Of a DNA stretch of 64,000 nt, positions 16,449 to 26,912 are shown in pieces. The position numbers and the translations under genes are program-made. Where the stretch lies: the NCBI GenBank assembly GCA_965277805.1, contig OZ255842.1, forward strand, positions 2,464,001-2,528,000, given 5' to 3'. Below the pieces are notes generated by a model, which was not told where the DNA came from, searched no databases, and saw only the letters and a list, made by a program, of their open reading frames with translations. The first letter of the stretch is position 1. Each line of letters opens with the position of its first letter. This DNA comes from Candidatus Lustribacter sp. (GTDB taxonomy: Bacteria; Vulcanimicrobiota; Vulcanimicrobiia; Vulcanimicrobiales; Vulcanimicrobiaceae).

Positions 16449-16561
16449 AGGTACGATGTTAGACGCCTGAGATTATGCCGCGTTCGTGATCACCTTATCC
16501 CGAGCTTAATAAGTAATCTCGTTCCGAGAGGTCGGCGTACCGGGAACAAGAAGCCGCGCGA

Positions 16562-16888
16562 ATGGATTATCATGAACACGCCGACTTGAGCTTAATTCCG
16601 GAACTCAAAGCACTCGATCCGGTTGGTTTTGCGGGCTTCGCCGCGCTGGACAAAACGGTGGGACGCACCGACGGTGCAATCCCGCAAAAGTATCGCGAAC
16701 TGATCGCGCTCGGCGTCGCGCTTACCACGCAGTGTCCGTACTGCCTCGACGTTCACACCAAAGCCGCAAAGAAAGCCGGCGCAACGCGTGAGGAGCTCGC
16801 CGAGACCGTGACGATCGCCTCCGCCCTGCGCGCGGGGGCGGCCCTTACCCACGGCTTGCTTGCTCTCAAGCTCTACGACAAGGCCTAG
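16562..16888 (+). CDS. Carboxymuconolactone decarboxylase/AhpD family protein
   Basis: KYRELIALGVALTTQCPYCLDVH...GATREEL. Confidence 0.9.
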   Translation: MDYHEHADLSLIPELKALDPVGFAGFAALDKTVGRTDGAIPQKYRELIALGVALTTQCPYCLDVHTKAAKKAGATREELAETVTIASALRAGAALTHGLLALKLYDKA

Positions 16889-16919
16889 ACGCCCCGGGCG
16901 AGCGGTCTTCCTGGCGATT

Positions 16920-16959
16920 CTGGCACTCTATTGACAGTATTGCTAACGTCTGCCAAAAT
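16920..16959 (+). promoter_or_regulatory. CIRCE (HrcA operator) overlapping a sigma70 promoter of hsp20
   Basis: CTGGCACTC-N9-TATTGCTAA at 16920-16946 (consensus TTAGCACTC-N9-GAGTGCTAA); TTGACA at 16931, 17-bp spacer, TGn-CAAAAT at 16954. Confidence 0.75.
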
Positions 16960-17020
16960 AGTGGCATAGGGCCGTTGCGCCCGCCACTCTTCTGTCCAGA
17001 AAGGGACTACTGCGCGAGCC

Positions 17021-17428
17021 ATGCCGACCGACGTTGCACGCCTGAACAATCGCCCTGCCGCCGGCAACGGTGGCGCTGTCGCCACCTATAGCCCGTGGCG
17101 CGAAGTGCTGGGGTACGACCCCTTCCGCCGCTTCTTCTCCACCCTCGATCCCGAGATCAATGTCGTCCGCACGGAAAACGGCTTTGACGTGGAGATCCCC
17201 GTCGCGGGCTTCAAGCCCGAAGACGTCGAGATCACCGTCAAGGAAGACATCCTGACGATCACCGGCAAGAACGATCGCCGCGCGTTCACGCGCTCGCTGC
17301 GTTTGCCGGAAGACATCAACGGCGACTCCGCCGATGCGGTCGTCGAGAACGGGCTTCTCTCGCTGCGCCTGGAGCGCCATCCCGAAGCGCAACCGCGCAA
17401 GATCGAGATCAAGGCGAGCCGCAACTAG
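17021..17428 (+). CDS. Hsp20/alpha-crystallin small heat-shock protein
   Basis: IPVAGFKPEDVEITV...FTRSLRLPEDI...AVVENGLLSLRL. Confidence 0.92.
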   Translation: MPTDVARLNNRPAAGNGGAVATYSPWREVLGYDPFRRFFSTLDPEINVVRTENGFDVEIPVAGFKPEDVEITVKEDILTITGKNDRRAFTRSLRLPEDINGDSADAVVENGLLSLRLERHPEAQPRKIEIKASRN

Positions 17429-17449
17429 TCTCGCTCGCGAAGGCACGCG

Positions 17450-17487
17450 AAGCGCGTACGGTGATGAACCGTGCGCGTTTTCTTTTT
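17450..17487 (+). terminator. Intrinsic terminator after hsp20
   Basis: AAGCGCGTACGG-loop-CCGTGCGCGTTT followed by CTTTTT. Confidence 0.7.
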
Positions 17488-17496
17488 GGCGCTTGT

Positions 17497-18138
17497 TCAA
17501 TCTATGCGGCGCAACGTCACGTTGATGCGACCGCTATCGAACAAGCCGGCTTGCGTCAGCAGCGTCGACGTATGCAGACGGATCCGCTCAACGCCGTGAT
17601 AGACCAATCTCGACGCACCGCCGAACCAAATCAGATCTCCGCTGTGGAGTGTAAATCGCCGCACAGGGTCTTTTCGGGATAAGCCGCCCAGTGCGAAGGT
17701 TGCATCGTCGCCGAGCGATATCGAGACGACCGGCGCGTCCAGACTCCCCTCGCCACGGTCCTGATGTAGACCCAATCTCGCATCGGCGTCGTAATAGTTG
17801 ATGAGGCACAGATTGGGCGCGCGGGTTTCGCCCGTTACACGGCCCCAAACGTCCACCAAACGTTTCGGAATAGCGGGCCACGTTAAGCCGGTAACCGGAT
17901 GCGTACTCTGATACCGATAGCCACCGTCGCGGTCCGTCACCCAACCGTACTGGCCTGCGTTGCTCATACGAACGCTCAACGCGGCCCCGGTCTTCGGCAT
18001 CTTCTGTTGAAAGAGCGGCGCTTGCTCAAGGACGGCGCGAACGTCAGAAATGAGGTCGAGCTGTTCCGCCTCGTTGAAAAAACCGGGTAAGAAGTGGAAT
18101 CCCTCGGGAAAGGATTCCACCATAACGTTATGCTGCAC
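17497..18138 (-). CDS. alkB: AlkB family Fe(II)/2-oxoglutarate dioxygenase
   Basis: GWVTDRDGGYRY; CLINYY...LGLHQD (HxD), VVSISLGD, YHGV, RINVTLR. Start may be ATG 18123. Confidence 0.9.
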   Translation of the reverse strand: MQHNVMVESFPEGFHFLPGFFNEAEQLDLISDVRAVLEQAPLFQQKMPKTGAALSVRMSNAGQYGWVTDRDGGYRYQSTHPVTGLTWPAIPKRLVDVWGRVTGETRAPNLCLINYYDADARLGLHQDRGEGSLDAPVVSISLGDDATFALGGLSRKDPVRRFTLHSGDLIWFGGASRLVYHGVERIRLHTSTLLTQAGLFDSGRINVTLRRID

Positions 18139-18261
18139 TATGATGAGGTACTTCGCCGGCAGTTGCGATAGCCGAAGTCCCGTTCATATCCCTATTCAAG
18201 CACGAACGTCGCGCAGGACAAGTGCCCGATTTTTCGCTCTTCAACGTGGGGCGATCGTTCG

Positions 18262-18288
18262 TGGAGCGGGCGGCGGGAATCGAACCCG
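18262..18288 (-). repeat. att-site direct repeat (duplicated 3' end of tRNA-Gly)
   Basis: TGGAGCGGGCGGCGGGAATCGAACCCG is identical to 24971-24997. Confidence 0.92.
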
Positions 18289-18404
18289 AGTTCTGCGACG
18301 CAGCGGCCGGCGGCCTCCCGATCTGATAGCCCGTCCGTGAACGCGATCTTCTCGAACACACCGGGCCGAGCCTCGCGCCGAATGGATGATCGTCCGAGAC
18401 AAAA

Positions 18405-19676
18405 CTAGTCTTTGTGCTTTCGCCTTTTGAGAACATCTCTCCATACCACGAGCGGATCAGCGGAGCCGAACTGTCCCCAACGCGCGCTAACAATGCTTGG
18501 ATACTCGTCATTCCCGAGCACTCCTACTTTGATGTTGTGGCCGCCCCTCGTAGACAGGACCTGCAGTTTCCATTTGGATCCGTCGCCATTGAGATTGTAA
18601 AGAATGCCGATTCGTCGTGTTGGCGATTGGTCTTGCTCCGCGAAGGCGATATCGAGGTAACCGTTACCGTCGAAATCGGCTAACTTCAGCGAACCTTGAT
18701 GCACGAAATTAACAGTCGGATCGATCATGTGCCTAACCCAGGTTCCACCGGGCATAGACGGCGCTTCGTACCAAACAAGCCCGCCTCCGCCGTACATGGG
18801 CGCGAGCAAGATGTCCTTGCGACCATTGTGATTTATATCGGTGATGGCCGTTGTCATATTGCCGGTGAAGAGCGGATGCGCGTCGATGATTTCCACTTGC
18901 CACCGCTCACGCAAGGGATCCCCGCGGTGATGTCGCGGATTCACAAAGCGGGCGAGCATTGTGGCCGAGCGATATGGAGCGATGATGTCTGGAATGCCAT
19001 CGGCCTTAAGGACGCCTAACGTGGTGCCTTGACCATCTCGCGGAATGATTCCGCGATCGGCAAAATCCCAGTGCTGCCCGCCGTTTTCGTTGAAGTATAC
19101 GCCCTGTTCCGTAACGATGTCGGGGCGACCGTTACCGTTGACATCGCCGAGCTGCACGTCATGTGAGTAGTGCTTTCGATCAATGGTTATTGACTGCCAA
19201 GGGCATTGGTAAACGTTCGAGCAAGCACTATGCCGAGGATTGAAAAGTACGCTCGTAACGAAATTCTGGCCGCCGGTAACGATGTCTGGTGCACCATCGC
19301 CATTGATGTCCGCAGTTCGAGCATCTTCGTCACCGCCCATGTAGTCGGCATGCGATATTCGGGATCGTTGACGGCCAGCGCCGTAAAGCTCAATTATAGT
19401 TGGCCCGTAGATGGCTCCCACGACTGAACCGCGACCATCAGCATCGATGATCACTTTGGCCTTATGGTTGCCACGCCGATCATCTAAGACGTATCGCTGA
19501 AACGGAACTGGCGACACGCGCGAGACGACGATGGTGGCAATGGGCTTCGCCCTGACTGGATTGGCGATGTCCTCTCGGTTCTTGAGAACGTTGAGCCCAT
19601 AGCGCTCATAACCTTCCCGAACGCCGAATGCAACGACCAAGGTCATGACAATCGCAAAGAGAGATCGACGATTCAT
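18405..19676 (-). CDS. FG-GAP/VCBS repeat-containing secreted or membrane-anchored protein
   Basis: Repeated ADINGDGAPDIV, GDVNGNGRPDIV, TDINHNGRKDIL, ADFDGNGYLDIA motifs; N-terminal TM. Confidence 0.85.
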   Translation of the reverse strand: MNRRSLFAIVMTLVVAFGVREGYERYGLNVLKNREDIANPVRAKPIATIVVSRVSPVPFQRYVLDDRRGNHKAKVIIDADGRGSVVGAIYGPTIIELYGAGRQRSRISHADYMGGDEDARTADINGDGAPDIVTGGQNFVTSVLFNPRHSACSNVYQCPWQSITIDRKHYSHDVQLGDVNGNGRPDIVTEQGVYFNENGGQHWDFADRGIIPRDGQGTTLGVLKADGIPDIIAPYRSATMLARFVNPRHHRGDPLRERWQVEIIDAHPLFTGNMTTAITDINHNGRKDILLAPMYGGGGLVWYEAPSMPGGTWVRHMIDPTVNFVHQGSLKLADFDGNGYLDIAFAEQDQSPTRRIGILYNLNGDGSKWKLQVLSTRGGHNIKVGVLGNDEYPSIVSARWGQFGSADPLVVWRDVLKRRKHKD

Positions 19677-19992
19677 TAGGCTTTGACACTACCAAGCGAA
19701 AGCACGCGGCACAATCCCGTTAAGTCGGGAATTTGCTCCGGAACCCGTCACTGCTTCAGTTCATCGCCGAGGTGCCGTGAATCGGCCCATGGAATTGCCG
19801 GAAGCCTCCAGCGAACCCAAAGCGGCACAGCTGATAAGCCTCTAATATCGGACGCGCGCAACGGTCGCGTCCCGGGCGCGACGACGACGAAACGCGGTTG
19901 CGCGTCCAATAATCTCCGGTTATCGAGCACGTTGACATTCAACTGAGACTAACGGCTGAGCTGGCATGACCATCAAGCTACGGCGAACGGGG

Positions 19993-20742
19993 CTACACTG
20001 TTCCGACCGGCGCCACTTCCGAAGCGATCTTCACATCGATCGGCGACTGCTCTACTATGCTTTTCACGGCTGCATTCGGAACGTCAGCGGCGGGAAGGCG
20101 AAGGTATCTCGGTATATCAAACGCCGCGAACGCTCGATCGATCAGCGGCGTGATCTTCGATAGTAGAGGTATTTTCAACGAACCGGCCACGAACGGGACC
20201 TCCGCCAGCTTCCAAAACGCGAAGCCGGCAGCGAGTGCAGCCGTTCCGGCAAGTGCGAGCTCGAAAGGAGTGCGGCCGTGGCCGACAATCGCGGCAATGA
20301 GGGGCTCGTGCACGAGATAGATTGAATAAGATGCCACACCAATCGCAACGAGCACCTTACTCGACAACGCGCGTTGCACGTCCGGCGACGTTCCGACGGC
20401 GACGACGAAAAAGAATGTGGCGAGTTGCCATCCGACGATTGCGGGTTGATAGGCGTACGTGATATCGGAGCCGTCCGAACCGGGCATGCGTGCGGATGGC
20501 TCGGCCACAATTCCGGCAATAGCACACAACACCATCATTGCCGGCGAGCTGCGCTTGATCCAGGTCGTGGCGGGACCGCCAAGCCGGGCGCCGATGAATA
20601 AATCAGCCGCGACGATACCCAACATAAAACCGGGCAGCGTACCGGCATCGAGTCCGCGAGCGCGAGTAAAAGCATAGATGATCATGCTGGCAAGGCCTAT
20701 CGCGCAAAACAGCCTCGGGGACTTCAGCCATGCCAACAACAT
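19993..20742 (-). pseudogene. Acyltransferase-3 (OafA-like) C-terminal fragment
   Basis: LVAIGVASYSIYLVHEPLI...FWKLAEVPF motif; the N-terminal half of the family is absent. Confidence 0.7.
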
Positions 20743-20938
20743 CCGCTCTTTTGAGGAGCAGGTTTGTTCACGGAGAGTAAAGCGAATCGACGTTTTGGGG
20801 CATCGGGGTGATCCTCATCACGCAAACCCTTTGACTTTTGGCGGATAACGGTAATGGAATTGCTTGGGCCGAAACTGCCCTCGATTTGATTTTGTAAACA
20901 CCCTAGCGCACGTACCACGAAATCGCTAAGGTCGTTCC

Positions 20939-21145
20939 ATGTTAATGTCACTGAGAGAGGTGGGCACGCGCGTCAGCTCATGCCCGTATCCGACAAAAGC
21001 CGAGCGGGGTTGTAGGGCGGACATCGCGTGGTTTTGCGTGTCTTGCAAACGATTTTCGTGCGGGATGCACGTGACTCGCCAGAGTGGCAACGTGGCATGC
21101 CGGCATTGCGCGCAGCAGTTACGGCGCCTGGGTGATCTAAATTGA
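20939..21145 (+). CDS. Zinc-finger microprotein 1 (C7H, B-box-like)
   Basis: C-x9-C-x5-W-x-C-x2-C-x4-C-x2-HV-x8-C-x2-C, shared with the next two ORFs. Confidence 0.7.
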   Translation: MLMSLREVGTRVSSCPYPTKAERGCRADIAWFCVSCKRFSCGMHVTRQSGNVACRHCAQQLRRLGDLN

Positions 21146-21468
21146 TGGATGGGCCGTCCAATGTCGATCAACGGGCCGGGGGACAAAACACGGCTCGAGT
21201 TTACGATGCTGACCGTCGCGTGACCAAAGTAGAGTGCGCGGAATCCACGATGCGCGGTGAGGCTTGCCGAGCGATTCCGCGTTGGCGGTGCCAAGGATGC
21301 GATCGTAACACGTGCGCCGATCATGTCGTCAGGCTTGCTACGGGGCCGCTTTGCGCAATCTGTAAGCAGCCGGCGACCCCGCTAATGCGGCGCGGCATTT
21401 TCTCGCACCTTACCGGCGAAACAGCCACGGTATTCATGAAGATACCTCCCCAACGGCTTAGCCGATAG
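21142..21468 (+). CDS. Zinc-finger microprotein 2 (C7H, B-box-like)
   Basis: Same motif spacing; start overlaps the previous stop (TGATG). Confidence 0.7.
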   Translation: MMDGPSNVDQRAGGQNTARVYDADRRVTKVECAESTMRGEACRAIPRWRCQGCDRNTCADHVVRLATGPLCAICKQPATPLMRRGIFSHLTGETATVFMKIPPQRLSR

Positions 21469-21472
21469 TGCG

Positions 21473-21703
21473 ATGAAAATCCAAAGGAAGGCCGAGCGAC
21501 GAAAACAGACGCCTCGTTGCGCGCAGGTCGTCGCAAACCGAAAACATTGCAAGTCGATACCGGCCTGGCGTTGCGAAATGTGCGCGACGGTTTTGTGCGG
21601 TGTGCACGTCGTCAGGAACGAGTACCGCGCGAGTTGCCGGCTCTGCGGCAGCAACGTGGTTCGCTTCAGTAAGCGCCTCGGCGAACGGCGAGCATCAATT
21701 TAG
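21473..21703 (+). CDS. Zinc-finger microprotein 3 (C7H, B-box-like)
   Basis: Same motif spacing; ATG 4 nt after the previous stop; basic termini. Confidence 0.7.
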   Translation: MKIQRKAERRKQTPRCAQVVANRKHCKSIPAWRCEMCATVLCGVHVVRNEYRASCRLCGSNVVRFSKRLGERRASI

Positions 21704-22131
21704 TTGCAGTGAATAGCGCCGGATGGTCCACTAGCTTTGCCCGGGCGCTTCGCGGCGACCAGTACCGGGGCGGGGGCAGGGCTACTCCCCGCGAAGGCGG
21801 CCCGTCCGATGAACTTTCGGACCACATGCACTTGGTAACCGACAAGATTCGCGAGGTCATGCCTGACGTGGCCCGGGTCGCGCACGGGCGCTGCGTGACG
21901 TGATCGCGCGGTTCGCAATCACTCACAGTCGACGCCTCCGACAGCAAGACGTGGTGGGTGAGGTTCGACCGCGCGCTGGTCTACGACGAGCGCCAGAGCG
22001 TTCGAGAGTGATCGTGACGGCGCAAAACGCGGCTGTGCACTTCACTTAGCGCGTTCGACGCCGCGACGTGCGTGACGATCGCCGCGAGCTATCGGCTAGA
22101 CTGTCGGGGCATACTCGTCGAGGACGAGGCC

Positions 22132-22284
22132 ATGCGCTGCCGGGCGTGTGGGTTTACGTCAACGTTGCCGGGCACGCCGGTCTCCGCGTGGCGCCGGCGT
22201 ACCTCTAACGTCGAGCCGACGGTGATCGAGCTGTGTGAGATCTGCGACGCTGCGGCCGGTGGGCAACCGGCGCCAACAAGCTGA
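22132..22284 (+). CDS. Putative zinc-ribbon microprotein
   Basis: GAGG RBS; MRCRACG...LCEICD (two CxxC). Confidence 0.4.
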   Translation: MRCRACGFTSTLPGTPVSAWRRRTSNVEPTVIELCEICDAAAGGQPAPTS

Positions 22285-22349
22285 ACCTATTTGAATGAGA
22301 GAGGAGACGGGCGTACCGTTAGCGCTCTTTGCGTCGCCTCGAATTGAAA

Positions 22350-23186
22350 TTATTTTGCTTGTTTAGGGACGGCGTTGGTGCCGCAATTATTCAAGTCAAA
22401 CGGCTTCGCTCGAAATTCGAACCTCCAATTGTCACCGCCGTATTCATCCGAGCTCCCTACGGCCATGCTCCATTGATCGAAATCGTAAACGACCCGAACC
22501 TCTTGATCGAAAATTGTATGCGATACAAATGTTACGGTAGCGTCTTTCCAAGTCCAGCGGGATGCGTCCAGCGGCTCCGGACCGTAGGTGAAGAAAGCTA
22601 CAGCTTGTCCTGATTCCGATGAGGAATTTGCGGCGAAGTTCTGTACTTCGGGACAGCTCGATATATATTTCGGGTTCGCTGAAACATTTCCGGGTAGATG
22701 CAATTCTACTCGATTGCGGAACGCGGGTGCATTGCCTAGGTTACGTACTTTTTCCGTAAGCACAAGCTGCCAGAGCCGAACACCCGGAAACTCTACTGGG
22801 ACCTGTTCAAGAATACAGCTGTCAACTGCCAATAGACAAGTGAGCTGCTGACGGTGATGCAAGTCGGCTTGAAGAAACGCGAGCCTGCCTTCTTGGGCCA
22901 TCGCAGATGTACGCCATGCTAGCAAGGCCGTCGCCAAAGCAAGACCGATGGTCCCAATGGCAACTAGAGCGTCCCAACCAAAAACCCATGGATGCTCAGC
23001 TATAACAGACTCCTTCCGCGAGGCCGCGATCTTCGATTCGGAGCGCCCAGCGGAGCTCCCTATTCCCAGGCGCTGCGAATGCCATTCGGGGTAACTTCGT
23101 CTTGCCGGAGATGACCGCAGGTTCGTAACAGTTGATGAGCACCTGTCTGCAGAGACCGCTTCTGGTGGCGCCACGCCGGCGATCAT
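22350..23186 (-). CDS. Hypothetical protein with one TM segment (true start probably near 23005)
   Basis: Long AT-richer ORF; WDALVAIGTIGLALATALLAW helix followed by a soluble domain. Confidence 0.55.
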   Translation of the reverse strand: MIAGVAPPEAVSADRCSSTVTNLRSSPARRSYPEWHSQRLGIGSSAGRSESKIAASRKESVIAEHPWVFGWDALVAIGTIGLALATALLAWRTSAMAQEGRLAFLQADLHHRQQLTCLLAVDSCILEQVPVEFPGVRLWQLVLTEKVRNLGNAPAFRNRVELHLPGNVSANPKYISSCPEVQNFAANSSSESGQAVAFFTYGPEPLDASRWTWKDATVTFVSHTIFDQEVRVVYDFDQWSMAVGSSDEYGGDNWRFEFRAKPFDLNNCGTNAVPKQAK

Positions 23187-23610
23187 CGAGACGCCTAGCT
23201 GTGTTCGATAAGTCGCTAATATCGAACGCGCCCCTCAGGCCATTGACGTCACAAGCGGTGAACGCATTGACTTTTTCGAAGGCGTGGCAGACGCATCGAA
23301 ATCGTTCTCAGTATCTTGCTCGTGGCCGCGTTGCCGCTATGCGCATCTGCTGAAGATTTTCCAAACCGTCCGACCGGCGTTCCCCTCATACATCCCGTGG
23401 GCCGGCTTTTGGACGATAGTGCCGGCGAGGGGCGCGGGTCGTTTGCGCTTCGGAATTTACAAACCGGCGCTGAAACGCAATATCGAATTGGTTCTCCAAT
23501 GACGGTTGATGGCCACGTAGCTCATTGCTTACAGCCTGGTGCGCGATCGATTCCTGTGCTACTACTGGCCATCATCCGTCATCGTTGGAAGGACTATTGA
23601 GACGCGGCGA

Positions 23611-24114
23611 TCACGCGTCGCCTTCGGGGGATGTGCCCGCCGGCATCTCATCTGTGATCGTCGGCACCTCAACGGCATTAGTTGCGTCGAACTGATGAGT
23701 TTGGGCACACCACGGGCAAAGGCGAGCGCGTGGCAAAAATCCGCGCCACTGAAGAGCTGCGATAGAAGGCGCGTAGATGGTCGCGGGCAGTAGCTGATCT
23801 GTCTCCGGACACCTCATAGTTACGAAGGGCACGGCGAAGATTTCGAGCCCGAGAAGGCGTCTCTCCTGTGGGCAGATTGCCACTCGTCCGCGCCACACGT
23901 TCCACCAAATCAGCCCTGCGATAAGCACAAATAACGTGGCTAAAAGTGTTTGCACCGTCGACGGGCGTCTGAACGCGAGCGCCACAAGGATCAGCGCGGA
24001 GGCACTCCACATCCAGGCGACCCAGGTTTTGTGGCGGGCCTTTTCGACGGCGTCATTTACCGGCGCCTTTTTCTCACAGGATCGCAGCTGCGAAGGCAGC
24101 CTTGCACACCTCAT
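23611..24114 (-). CDS. Hypothetical membrane protein with C-terminal C-P...CPxC-x3-H zinc-binding motif (start uncertain)
   Basis: Two TM segments, then MRCPETDQ...CPWCAQTHQF. Confidence 0.45.
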   Translation of the reverse strand: MRCARLPSQLRSCEKKAPVNDAVEKARHKTWVAWMWSASALILVALAFRRPSTVQTLLATLFVLIAGLIWWNVWRGRVAICPQERRLLGLEIFAVPFVTMRCPETDQLLPATIYAPSIAALQWRGFLPRARLCPWCAQTHQFDATNAVEVPTITDEMPAGTSPEGDA

Positions 24115-24480
24115 AACACTCGCAAGATGAGCCCTTGAGTAAGGCTTTCCTCTCGACGACGGCGCAGCCTCGCTGAGAACGGACCGCTCCGCGTTCTTGA
24201 AGGCTCGCCATCGCCACTGTTACGCTAGCGCGTCTAACGCCCAAAACGTGTGCCAAAGACTGTGTGTGATCTTTAATTCAGTTTTATGACCCTGTCTTGA
24301 GTTACTGACAGCGAGCGCGCGCACCGCTGAAGGACGGAATGCTTGGCGTTGCACGCCGCCAGTTGACCGGCGCAAAACAAGGTGGCAGTTACGTTCCGGT
24401 TCATGAGTCGCGCAAAAGATGCGCTACTCGTCATTTGCGCTCTGAATTGCTGAATTGGCATCATTGCAGAAATCAGTGAG
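24074..24480 (-). pseudogene. Crp/Fnr family regulator remnant (frameshifted, N-truncated)
   Basis: QLAACNAKHSVLQRCARSL in one frame; AHVLGVRRASVTVAMASLQERG...SCECYEV in another. Confidence 0.75.
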
Positions 24481-24663
24481 TTCAATCGGCAGAACATAGA
24501 CGCCACCCTAACACGCGGGCGCAGCCGCATCGGTCGCTTGCGCGTCACGCCGGAGCCCGGTCTCTTTAGCATTCAGGGCGATCCGAGTCGTGCGGGCGTC
24601 CGAAGGCGGCTTCGTCGAAGATTTGTACACCGAAGACTTCGTGAAGATCGAAGCGTACCGCGC

Positions 24664-24828
24664 ATGAGAAAAGTCACCAAGCGCAAGAAGTCTATCGTCG
24701 CCGAACCGCGCAGGTCCGAACCGTACATCTGCTGCGAGTGCGGCAAACCGATCATCGGTCGCGCGATGAAATACGGCCCTCCTCTGTCAAGTACGAACGC
24801 CTATCACCCGCTTTGCTATAACCCGTAG
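24664..24828 (+). CDS. Putative LIM-like zinc-finger microprotein
   Basis: ICCECGKPII...YHPLC motif after a basic N-terminus. Confidence 0.4.
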   Translation: MRKVTKRKKSIVAEPRRSEPYICCECGKPIIGRAMKYGPPLSSTNAYHPLCYNP

Positions 24829-24970
24829 CAACGTTATGCCGGACCTCGGGACTGAAGGCGTCTAGTTGTTTACCATCCGTTTACCACCCATTACCGCAGG
24901 AACGGGTCGGTCTTAATAAATTCTCCTGGACGGCCTACAAAGAAAAAGCCCGATAAAATCAAGCTTTTAA

Positions 24971-25044
24971 TGGAGCGGGCGGCGGGAATCGAACCCGCGA
25001 CTCTTGCTTGGAAGGCAAGGGCATTACCATTATGCAACGCCCGC
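24971..25044 (-). tRNA. tRNA-Gly(TCC)
   Basis: GCGGGCG...CTTGC-CTTCCAA-GCAAG anticodon arm, GGTTCGATTCCC T-arm, encoded CCA. Confidence 0.95.
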
Positions 25045-25430
25045 ATACCCCTGGTCGTCCCATCATTTGTCCCAATTTGCAGCAACTTCCCGTCACTTCC
25101 CGGAATTGCAGGTTGGCGGAGCTAGGCGTTCTCTGCTAAGTAACGCCGATCAGGCGGATGCGGCGGTGCATCCTGCGATTGCACGTATGGGGGCAAGCCG
25201 ACGCGGTCCGGCACGCCGGCCCACGCGAAGCAACGGCGCGACGGGCCGGATGCCGTCCAGCGGGCGCGACGCAGCGGTCAGGTCGTAAACGGCCGTTCGG
25301 CGACATACCCAGAACGTAAAGCCGGCCGCCAGCGCGACGGGCGGGCGCCACAAAGTAGGCGACGAGACGTGCAAATGGTGCGCGATCGTGCGGACGATCG
25401 GCTACCAAGGCCAAAAGACCCTAGTATCGG

Positions 25431-26459
25431 TTAGAGGTGGGTCGGGACTCGAACGCCGGCAGCCTTCTGTGCCGCGTTGATGAATGTCGTGTCGATCAAT
25501 GTACCGATCGGTTGTTCCAGCGGTACGAGGCTGTAGAGGTGCCAGAAGCGCTGTGTTTCTTCCAACGATGCAACGTGGATTTGGCCGTATTCACCCGTGT
25601 ATGGCGGCGACGGTATGGCCGCGATGAGATCGGGCGCGAGGCCCGTCCATTTCGCCATGATGGCGATCATTTCGGGCGTCCATTTGCCGTTCGCATCGGC
25701 GATGAACTTGCACGCCCTGACGTAACCGGTCAAGAAGCGGCGAATCGCATCCGGCTTCGCCTTCAGCGTTTTGGCCGAGGCAGCCAGGAAGCTCTCTTGA
25801 TAGCTCGGATCGACATCGGTGATCGAGAGCCAGCGATGGCCGATCTTCTGCTGCTCGAGTTGCGTGACCGTCGGCTCGTAGGCTGCTTGCACGTCGTTCA
25901 CGTTGCGCAATGACGCAAGCCAATCGCCGGCCGTCGAGAAACGTTCGCTGAATGTCATGTCGGCCGGCGTCAGCGCGGCGTTCGTCATCAGATGACGCGC
26001 GAGATACCAGCCTTCACCGCCCGGCGTTGCGCCGTCGAAGTGTTTGCCGCGTAGATCGCGCGGCGCACGAATCGTCTTCGCGTCCCAATCCGATTGCTTC
26101 ACGACGAGCCAAACCGCCGGGTTCCAGCCCTTGTGACTCGAGTTCGACGACGCGATCAGCTTGGCGTCGAAGCCTTGCGCGAACTGGTTGAAGAAACCGG
26201 GGTTCGCCGAGATCGTCGCGACGTCGACGTCACCGCGCGCGAGCGATGGGATGATCGACTGGCTCGAACCGCTGTGAATGACGGCCTGCACGTTCACGCC
26301 GGCTTGCGCGAAGAAGCCCTTGTCGATGCCGACCATCACCGGCAGCGTGAAGATCAGCTGCGGGTTCATCAGCACTTTCACGACGGGCAGCGCCGGCGTT
26401 TGCGCCCCGCTCGAAAGCGGCAGCAACAGCAGCGCGAAAAGAAAAAGGACGGCCTTCAT
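25431..26459 (-). CDS. ABC transporter substrate-binding protein (SsuA/THI5-like)
   Basis: Signal peptide from ATG 26459; KGFFAQAGVNV, PRDLRGK, KPDAIRRFLTGY. Confidence 0.82.
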   Translation of the reverse strand: MKAVLFLFALLLLPLSSGAQTPALPVVKVLMNPQLIFTLPVMVGIDKGFFAQAGVNVQAVIHSGSSQSIIPSLARGDVDVATISANPGFFNQFAQGFDAKLIASSNSSHKGWNPAVWLVVKQSDWDAKTIRAPRDLRGKHFDGATPGGEGWYLARHLMTNAALTPADMTFSERFSTAGDWLASLRNVNDVQAAYEPTVTQLEQQKIGHRWLSITDVDPSYQESFLAASAKTLKAKPDAIRRFLTGYVRACKFIADANGKWTPEMIAIMAKWTGLAPDLIAAIPSPPYTGEYGQIHVASLEETQRFWHLYSLVPLEQPIGTLIDTTFINAAQKAAGVRVPTHL

Positions 26460-26534
26460 AACCAAGAGCCTTTCCCTCGCTCGTTTGCGTTCCTGTCCGA
26501 AGACGCGCGCCGCGGTAACGGCGCGCGCCCGGAC

Positions 26535-26623
26535 TGGTGGGCAGGGTTGGATTCGAACCAACGTACCGCGTTAAGCGGGCCAGGTTTACAGCCTGGTGCC
26601 TTTAACCACTCGACCACCTACCC
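26535..26623 (-). tRNA. tRNA-Tyr(GTA)
   Basis: GGGTAGG acceptor, CCAGG-CTGTAAA-CCTGG anticodon arm, long variable arm, GGTTCGAATCC, encoded CCA. Confidence 0.95.
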
Positions 26624-26708: not shown

Positions 26709-26744
26709 GCTGGTCTCGGTGAAAGAATTAGGTGGGGAACACAG

Positions 26745-26823
26745 GCCGACGTGGCACAGCGGCGACTGCACAGCTTTTGTAAAGCTGCATACAACACCGT
26801 GGGTTCGAGTCCCACCGTCGGCT
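26745..26823 (+). tRNA. tRNA-Thr(TGT), atypical (11-nt variable region, no encoded CCA)
   Basis: GCCGACG/CGTCGGC acceptor; CAGCT-TTTGTAA-AGCTG anticodon arm; GTGGG-TTCGAGT-CCCAC T-arm. Confidence 0.85.
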
Positions 26824-26912
26824 TATCCAGTCAACAAGGCGTCCGGTCATCGGCTGGACTCAATAATCGGTTCGTATGGCGCGAACAGTGTAGGGTCGGA
26901 GGACAAGACCTA

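Follow-up and report, generated by a model that had tools for sequence, protein, structure and literature searches.

Three very short open reading frames (ORFs) that follow one another within less than 800 bp raise the question of whether they are genes at all and, if they are, what kind of protein they encode. We addressed this for a stretch of 64,000 nucleotides (nt) from Candidatus Lustribacter sp. (assembly GCA_965277805.1, contig OZ255842.1, positions 2,464,001 to 2,528,000 of the forward strand), here referred to as the window, in which the three ORFs, here named A, B and C, occupy positions 20,939 to 21,703. They proved to be true genes and belong to a family of small stand-alone proteins that has no curated model and is here referred to as the finger family. 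The original prediction had described a trio of co-oriented ORFs with a TGATG overlap and a 4-nt gap that share an identically spaced motif of eight putative zinc ligands. Both the ORF listing and the DNA confirmed this arrangement. The A/B junction reads ...AAATTGATGG..., with one base common to the TGA stop of A and the ATG of B, and the TAG stop of B is followed by 4 nt and then by the ATG of C. The motif C-x9-C-x5-W-x-C-x2-C-x4-C-x2-H-x9-C-x2-C is present in all three proteins and the cores match those quoted. Across the trio the amino acid identity to A is 28-31%, and the columns invariant among A, B and C are the eight ligands together with M1, W31, V45, R47, R63 and G65.

A six-frame scan of the 5.53-Mb genome for the exact spacing gave 12 matches, and the same scan of the reversed, non-complemented genome, used as a decoy, gave none. 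Thus the motif trio is far beyond chance. Homology among the genome copies was strong: hidden Markov model (HMM) searches recovered A, B and C at E 1e-30 to 1e-37. The 12 copies comprise the window trio, a second trio, one A-B pair and four singletons (Table 1). Subtype A has about 67 amino acids (aa), the N-terminus MLMSL and short tails. Members of subtype B are 79-107 aa in length with D/E-RR before and TPLMRR after the finger, and the C-like subtype comprises proteins of 76-85 aa with ERR before and KR..[D/E]RR after it. R48 was invariant across all 12 copies. B came directly after A in each of the four genomic cases seen, and the TGATG junction was kept in the window trio, the second trio and the pair at 5.085 Mb. 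Relatives carried 1-5 copies, the highest number being found in the congener G003.

Homologs with conserved ligands were found outside the locus, in other genomes and in metagenomes, by means of a profile of 12 rows. Among 1.84 billion representative proteins it matched 44 at E<=1e-3, 14 of these at E<=1e-10. The sole long match (P0039, 724 aa), a protein of DUF4379 repeats, was not counted as a member; the remaining 43 representatives are 62-189 aa in length. Judged by these sequences, nearly all family members appear to be stand-alone proteins. None of 8000 longer candidates scored for fused forms reached E<=0.01, which is weak evidence. The short database set consisted of 46 proteins (P0001-P0047 without P0039). 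Exactly the same ligand spacing was found in 17 of them, and the others mostly differ slightly, with Y or F for W, a second pair C-x3/4-C or a first loop of 8-12 residues. In an alignment of 50 members seven ligands were invariant and the fourth Cys was at least 90% conserved, at a mean column identity of 17%; three members without this Cys carry a His in the corresponding loop. The consensus also includes T and G in the first loop and an aromatic position (W32) which is mostly W and in some members Y, F or another residue.

The same proteins are nearly nameless in the databases. All are called 'hypothetical protein' save one, with the automatic name 'predicted nucleic acid-binding Zn ribbon protein'. 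A, B and C had no match at threshold to any Pfam, NCBIfam, PHROG or PADLOC model, in line with the proposal of a stand-alone family lacking a curated model. The exact sequences of A, B and C were not found in a collection of 15 billion proteins, which holds a small protein of the same genome (P0057). The missing entries fit the description of the trio as unannotated; different start choices could also explain them. No published description of the finger family surfaced in the literature searched.

To what extent the copies evolve as coding genes was estimated from the ratio of non-synonymous to synonymous substitution rates (dN/dS), determined after Nei and Gojobori for 11 pairs with small difference counts. 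Between the window trio and the second trio dN/dS was 0.20 for A (3 synonymous and 2 non-synonymous differences), 0.17 for B (9 and 5) and 0.20 for C (7 and 5). Cross-genome pairs gave 0.15, 0.20, 0.32 and 0.61, and deep paralog pairs 0.16-0.29. In total 10 of the 11 pairs did not exceed 0.32 (range 0.15-0.32). The assumption of selection on real coding genes is therefore upheld, by values of 0.17-0.20 between the trio copies and of 0.15-0.32 for most other pairs.

In a maximum-likelihood tree of 55 rows and 86 columns, in which many forks lacked support, the four genomic A copies formed a clade (99/95) with the metagenome proteins P0007, P0018, P0022, P0032 and P0026. The B copies formed another (98/77) with P0002, P0004, P0010, P0020 and a copy from a metagenome contig. 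Since each of these clades includes proteins of other organisms, A and B represent old lineages and not recent tandem duplicates. Both C copies fell into a poorly supported group with other C-like proteins. The proposal that the trio consists of old paralogs accordingly holds for A and B, whereas the tree does not place C. Within the B clade the island-borne copies formed a group with P0002 and P0004 (99/98), outside which the chromosomal B of the same genome was placed; this greater closeness hints that the trio module may have come from outside.

Table 1. Finger genes, their copies in the genome and surrounding features. Positions refer to the window unless the genome or another locus is named.
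Feature	Position	Strand	Evidence or remarks
Finger gene A	20939..21145	+	68 aa, isoelectric point (pI) 9.5; N-terminus MLMSL conserved; without Arg-rich arms
Finger gene B	21145..21468	+	107 aa from ATG at 21145 (108 aa from TTG at 21142), pI 9.4
Finger gene C	21473..21703	+	76 aa, pI 10.9; AERR before finger, KRLGERR after
Second A-B-C trio	genome 4,852,188-4,852,959		motif scan and HMM
A-B pair	genome 5,085,625-5,086,067		motif scan and HMM
Finger singletons	genome 2.715, 3.383, 4.872, 4.946 Mb		motif scan and HMM
Duplicated 1.5-kb module	20762..22258	+	91.5% identity to genome 4852012-4853505
Left copy of 27-nt direct repeat (att-like)	18262..18288	.	100% identity to 24971-24997, the tRNA-Gly 3' end
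Integrated genomic island, 6,682 bp	18289..24970	.	repeat bracket, empty site and GC content
FG-GAP repeat protein gene, 423 aa	18405..19676	-	PF13517, E 2.3e-14; paralog at L017:8006-9283
Acyl_transf_3 gene, N-terminally truncated	19993..20742	-	residues 10-158 match profile positions 151-300 of 326
D1 pseudogene	21823..22049	+	TGA at 21901-21903 in place of the paralogs' TGG (Trp), then frameshift
D2, 50-aa CxxC...CxxC zinc-ribbon-like ORF	22132..22284	+	conserved at 4 genome loci
D1-D2 unit, 4 loci	21823-22284; L016:11055-11592; L021:3171-3750; L020:9332-9794 (-)		
Island ORF, 278 aa	22350..23186	-	low GC content at third codon positions (0.52); no family match
Island ORF, 167 aa	23611..24114	-	no family match
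tRNA-Gly(TCC)	24971..25044	-	Rfam tRNA, 69.5 bits; 24971-24997 is the right repeat copy

Which fold such proteins could adopt was examined with an AlphaFold2 model of C, built from a 50-row alignment, which reached a mean predicted local distance difference test score of 80.7. Means of ten-residue blocks were 83-94 over residues 21-70, and values of 59 and 58 were obtained for residues 1-10 and 71-76, respectively. The model contains five short strands (30-34, 40-42, 46-48, 53-55, 61-64) and no helix. Two knuckles, C34-x2-C37 and C55-x2-C58, are placed at hairpin turns in the manner of a zinc ribbon. Because the model lacks metal, the pairing of ligands to zinc was drawn from the ligand order and the predicted strands, and from these we infer that it is interleaved.

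Structural searches yielded no confident assignment to a characterised family. With Foldseek no match in the PDB reached E<=0.001, the best (E 0.35) being TFIIE and TFIIH ribbons and the zinc insertion of MetRS, and the best match in a fold search of BFVD had an E-value of 0.16. The wide VIA fold search gave a chain of an archaeal 30S structure as its weak best hit (Z 3.9), followed by the BIRC7 RING (Z 3.7), the TFIIE-alpha finger (3.5), a ZZ domain (3.4) and B-boxes (about 3). In the PDB VIA fold search the best Z was 3.8; B-box1 of PML (Z 3.5, root mean square deviation 2.9, 43 aligned residues) and the TRIM39 B-box (Z 3.5) were among the matches. The scores of 3.0-3.5 to the B-boxes of PML (B1), TRIM39, COL2 and TRIM28 were no better than those to unrelated zinc ribbons and RINGs, and matches as weak as all these do not show a new fold. 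A sequence profile search of the PDB likewise gave no significant match (best E 0.14, GATA fingers).

Sub-threshold Pfam matches at E<=1 among the 50 members were spread over several families: ANCHR-like B-box (11), zf-HIT (11), Zn_ribbon_8 (9), Zn_ribbon_3 (8), rubredoxin-like (7), zf-AN1 (6) and zf-B_box (4), with none at the cut-off. Membership was rejected for the B-box, as the highest score of A, B and C for PF22586 was 15.2 bits and the cut-off is 27 (best E 0.0014 over the 50 members), for zf-AN1 (PF01428, 8.0 against 27.9 bits; best E 0.016) and for zf-HIT (PF04438, 10.8 against 24.7 bits; best E 0.0098).

The resemblance to B-box and AN1 fingers, which the original prediction had pointed out, can be traced to a common central stretch, C-x2-C-x4-C-x2-H. 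The weak sub-threshold matches come from this stretch and to that extent the likeness stands, whereas membership fails on the score and on the terminal ligand pairs. AN1 and HIT fingers have the same central spacing as the finger family, but their terminal pairs are different, and they are modules of larger, mostly eukaryotic proteins whereas the finger family stands alone. With the B-box (PF00643/PF22586) the family shares a length of about 45 residues and eight ligands for two zincs besides the central stretch. However, its first pair, C-x9-C, is not a knuckle and its last pair is C-x2-C rather than His-His; moreover, the model is all-beta, and the proteins are stand-alone bacterial ones with Arg-rich arms. 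The B-box ligand string is CC/HCCCCHH according to PMC4506424, and the family string C-C-C-C-C-H-C-C deviates from it. According to the same source, the three-stranded sheet of binuclear RING-like treble clefs is composed of the primary hairpin and a C-terminal strand, which is started by the last ligand. In the model of C, three residues separate C58 from the start of the last strand; among RINGs the highest Z was 3.8.

Closer in general character are small zinc-binding proteins of prokaryotes. The C(P)XCG zinc-finger micro-proteins HVO_2753 and HVO_0758 of Haloferax volcanii, as described in PMC11241148 and PMC10716476, are also stand-alone, below about 100 aa and present in many copies per genome. 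The finger family, however, lacks C(P)XCG knuckles; its first pair is C-x9-C, one of its ligands is a His and a Trp is conserved. Sequence and fold searches gave no significant match, and PF07754 gave weak matches in three of the 50 members. Ogr/Delta-type activators of P2-like phages (PF04606) are likewise small zinc-binding regulators on mobile elements. Their fingers have four ligands and one zinc. Weak matches to PF04606 occurred in three of the 50 members (best E 0.031, not significant), and the finger family differs from these activators in having no relatives in the phage collections searched.

The trio is carried by a mobile element, as proposed, and this element is a decayed remnant of an island at a tRNA-Gly gene, in which no integrase was detected. 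The island is bracketed by a perfect 27-nt direct repeat derived from the tRNA 3' end, and its GC content is 57.1% as compared with 63.9% in the flanks and 64.3% in the genome. In contig C11 of the congener G003, window positions 16525-18288 map at 91% identity and positions 24971-25403, with the tRNA and the right flank, at 87%. The two mapped segments of this contig (129578-131291 for the left and 129165-129604 for the right side) overlap by exactly 27 nt. The flanks are therefore joined at an empty site, and window positions 18289-24970 represent an insertion. The repeat, the lower GC content and the empty site in a relative are shared with typical tRNA-integrated islands, from which the window island differs in that neither an integrase nor another mobility gene was detected. 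The scanned island ORFs had no match to an integrase family in Pfam or PHROG, and tblastn with the genome's own island integrase gave a best E of 0.11. The neighbours of the trio are decayed as well, as seen from the truncated acyltransferase gene and the D1 pseudogene. The 5' end of the former abuts the border of the duplicated block, and a search of the rest of the window did not recover its N-terminal half. A scan of positions 17500-26000 with Rfam models found only the tRNA.

Just past tRNA-Gly, G003 contains about 1 kb of DNA that the window lacks there. A part of it (G003:C11:128793-129079) is 69% identical to the truncated acyltransferase gene (window 20392-20678), which suggests repeated rearrangement at a tRNA-Gly hot spot.

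Besides A, B, C and D1 the duplicated module contains 177 bp of upstream sequence and most of D2. In the surroundings of its second copy there are a tyrosine integrase and a tail-like gene, at a distance of 3 kb, and a large terminase at about 20 kb. Two kb downstream of the second trio, between fragments of the rve_3 integrase core, a PDC-S11 candidate defence gene was found (L016:12998-14146, genome 4,854,997-4,856,145; E 3.7e-89; Pfam DUF4268). The surrounding 40 kb (genome 4.842-4.882 Mb; L016, L021) have almost no DNA counterpart in three congeners. Apart from the second trio, a D1-D2 unit and an A-like finger, they carry the tyrosine integrase, the tail-like gene (phrog_7043) and the large terminase (phrog_2), and this accessory region is probably made up of one or more prophage or island remnants. 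Contigs from four sequencing runs contain DNA of the locus including the second-copy variant, which concerns DNA presence only.

Intact D1 has about 80 aa, only five database relatives and no known family. It is frameshifted at 2.714 Mb too. D2 has no Pfam family and a dN/dS of 0.22 against its second copy. The D1-D2 unit adjoins finger genes at three of its four loci and stands alone at 4.865 Mb. A paralog of the FG-GAP gene (423-426 aa) is located directly upstream of the A-B pair both in this genome (L017:8006-10068) and in a named metagenome-assembled genome (MAG), where the pair recurs (L044:3726-6210). In the window the FG-GAP gene is upstream of the trio in inverted orientation, with 71% DNA identity to genome positions 5084807-5085173. 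This linkage may be either functional or a mere trace of segmental duplication. Downstream of the A-B pair at 5.085 Mb (L017:10600-13227) we noted an HTH_17 (excisionase-like) gene and a gene for an AbiEii-like nucleotidyltransferase. The named MAG has an ABC transporter at this place, so that a further small insertion is present in this genome.

How widely the family is distributed was assessed at several levels. Within the genus it was found in five of seven other genomes, and a sample of 33 genomes that represent further genera of the family, order and class gave no match. Across the phylum 16 of 401 sampled genomes, the present one included, had a match at E<=1e-5 with 1-2 copies each (15 of 400 without the unpublished genome G260). 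The family has so far been seen in a minority of the phylum's genomes and in metagenomes. In the named collection the only matches were three loci (L042-L044) of one MAG, 'Candidatus Eremiobacteraeota bacterium'. One of these (L043) has neighbouring ORFs of 276, 377, 185 and 200 aa, sizes that recur beside the 3.383-Mb copy of the window genome (L019), where two of the flanking ORFs encode a GDSL lipase and an acyltransferase. The two finger proteins show four non-synonymous differences. From this correspondence the window genome most probably belongs to the Eremiobacterota.

The family as a whole cannot be called mobile, as homologs elsewhere lie among ordinary chromosomal genes, some of them in stable synteny. 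In genus g60 (G252, G301, G302 and G381; L077, L078, L082 and L083) the finger gene is co-oriented next to a Beta-lactamase2 gene at all four loci at which it was located, with gaps of about 55-120 bp. Genes for Bmp/PnrA-type ABC-transporter permeases lie on its other side, adjacent in three of the four. These g60 fingers form a divergent subfamily (C-x10-C-x5-Y-x-C-x4-C...). Other homologs were found in metabolic contexts, near amidohydrolases, NMT1-type binding proteins and Rieske oxygenases. The search for relatives in mobile elements gave 29 pattern matches in IMG/VR, none of which was confirmed, a best E of 0.3 in 50,697 phage records and a best E of 0.6 in 72,556 plasmids (both tblastn). 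On one metagenome contig (L098, 1578-2284) two family members stand in divergent orientation; they adjoin a pair of ORFs which, on reading the translations by eye, resemble an AbrB-type antitoxin and a PIN-domain toxin.

What could these proteins do? The reading we tentatively favour, with a probability of roughly 45%, is that A, B and C act as basic nucleic-acid-binding small regulators at the transcriptional or post-transcriptional level. It is based on the basic character of the family and on the fact that no catalytic domain or fusion was found, the former in a Pfam scan of the 50 members. Among the 47 members with a full finger, pI was above 9 in 41, [D/E]RR occurred within 14 residues before the first ligand in 22, and a dibasic pair within 16 residues after the eighth in 33. 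Each protein would fold into a compact unit of beta strands that binds two Zn(II) through interleaved ligand pairs, as in a cross-brace. The first, second and fifth Cys ligands and the His (C16, C26, C42 and H45 in C) would hold one zinc, and the knuckles C3-x2-C4 and C7-x2-C8 (numbered by ligand) would hold the other in a zinc-ribbon-like manner. The zinc module would serve as a scaffold, and the poorly ordered, Arg-rich arms that flank it in B, C and many relatives would be the surface that contacts nucleic acid. As A lacks such arms and is translationally coupled to B, it would most likely be the partner or modulator of B. On the island, the trio would control island or host genes.

Several points weigh against such a regulatory role. 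Cross-brace fingers (RING, B-box, ZZ) usually bind proteins and not nucleic acid. Distant members are acidic or neutral, with a pI below 7 in two of the 47 and acidic C-termini in L056, L057 and L060. A conserved partner gene across genomes was not found when paralogs are set aside. A scan for sigma-70-like promoters with a consensus that may not suit this phylum gave no site.

The habit of cross-brace fingers leads to a second explanation, in which the proteins would be protein-protein adaptors. Like such fingers or the zinc ribbons of transcription factors, the module would dock on a protein of the host, for instance a protease, RNA polymerase or a protein of defence, with the island copies acting as modulators or in counter-defence. 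We consider this unlikely, although it is the main rival. In its favour, the weak fold matches were to RING, B-box and ZZ modules and to the ribbon of TFIIE-alpha. In addition, seven of the 12 genome copies are located in accessory DNA, candidate defence genes lie near two of the loci (PDC-S11 by the second trio and the AbiEii-like nucleotidyltransferase by the A-B pair), and the island B copies are nearer to metagenome proteins than to the chromosomal B of their own genome. However, PADLOC and PHROGs contained no known defence or phage family matching A, B, C, D1 or D2 (D1 was compared with PADLOC only). The fingers had no relatives in the phage, IMG/VR or plasmid collections searched, and in other genera the homologs are stably placed in the chromosome, amid genes for transport and metabolism. 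The strongly basic arms, too, are better suited to the binding of nucleic acid.

A bolder reading would make the finger family, with its modules of about 45 residues and two zincs, a lineage-restricted new branch of cross-brace fingers in which a C-x9-C first pair is interleaved with a zinc ribbon, an unusual layout. A, B and C would have to assemble with one another and would contact DNA or RNA through the Arg-rich arms of this obligate hetero-oligomer, the element-borne copies serving as a portable regulatory or counter-defence switch that has been copied between islands of the genome. As a whole we regard this as decidedly unlikely.

It is highly improbable that the trio forms a toxin-antitoxin-like or addiction module together with D1 and D2, in which the fingers would be the antitoxin or regulator. 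Such a module could account for the duplication of A-B-C-D1-D2 as one unit, for the recurrence of D1-D2 at four loci, at least two of them next to finger genes, and for the pair that looks like AbrB and PIN by eye beside the two fingers of the metagenome contig. But the window D1 is a pseudogene while the fingers are intact, D1 and D2 were not seen beside the homologs in other genomes, no toxin-like domain was found and the majority of the family occur as single genes.

Zinc buffering or storage, or thiol redox sensing in the manner of a metallothionein, can hardly be the function, even though proteins of 68-107 aa with seven Cys and one His each, encoded 12 times in a single genome, would fit it. 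The fixed spacing, the conserved non-ligand residues and the basic arms argue for a structural finger and not a metal cluster, and no genes of metal homeostasis were found nearby.

That the frames are chance ORFs of GC-rich DNA, for which the many overlapping ORFs on both strands and the lack of the exact sequences in the 15-billion-protein collection might speak, is refuted by the decoy count of 0 against 12 copies, by ligands that stay invariant across relatives at 17% mean column identity and by dN/dS well below 1, and the confident fold prediction speaks against it as well.

Stand-alone zinc-finger micro-proteins and tRNA islands are already known kinds. New are the finger family itself, for which there is no curated model, and its ligand layout, furthermore its expansion to 12 copies and the copying of a module between accessory regions. 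Its apparent confinement, within the searches made, to a single little-cultured phylum is also new. Since small proteins are systematically missed in annotation, a clean, selection-supported family of zinc-finger microproteins in a largely uncultured phylum is of interest, the more so as a route of spread, by a tRNA island and an intragenomic module copy, is documented. If the proteins were hetero-oligomeric regulators, they would be a bacterial counterpart to the archaeal zinc-finger micro-proteins and bring a novel arrangement of ligands into the group of cross-brace fingers. Even if they are not regulators, the family merits a Pfam-type entry.

Two further tRNA genes, for tRNA-Tyr and tRNA-Thr (window 26535-26623 and 26744-26824), are located 1.5 kb past tRNA-Gly. 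The ORF at 25431..26561 overlaps the tRNA-Tyr gene, and its listed start is probably too far upstream.

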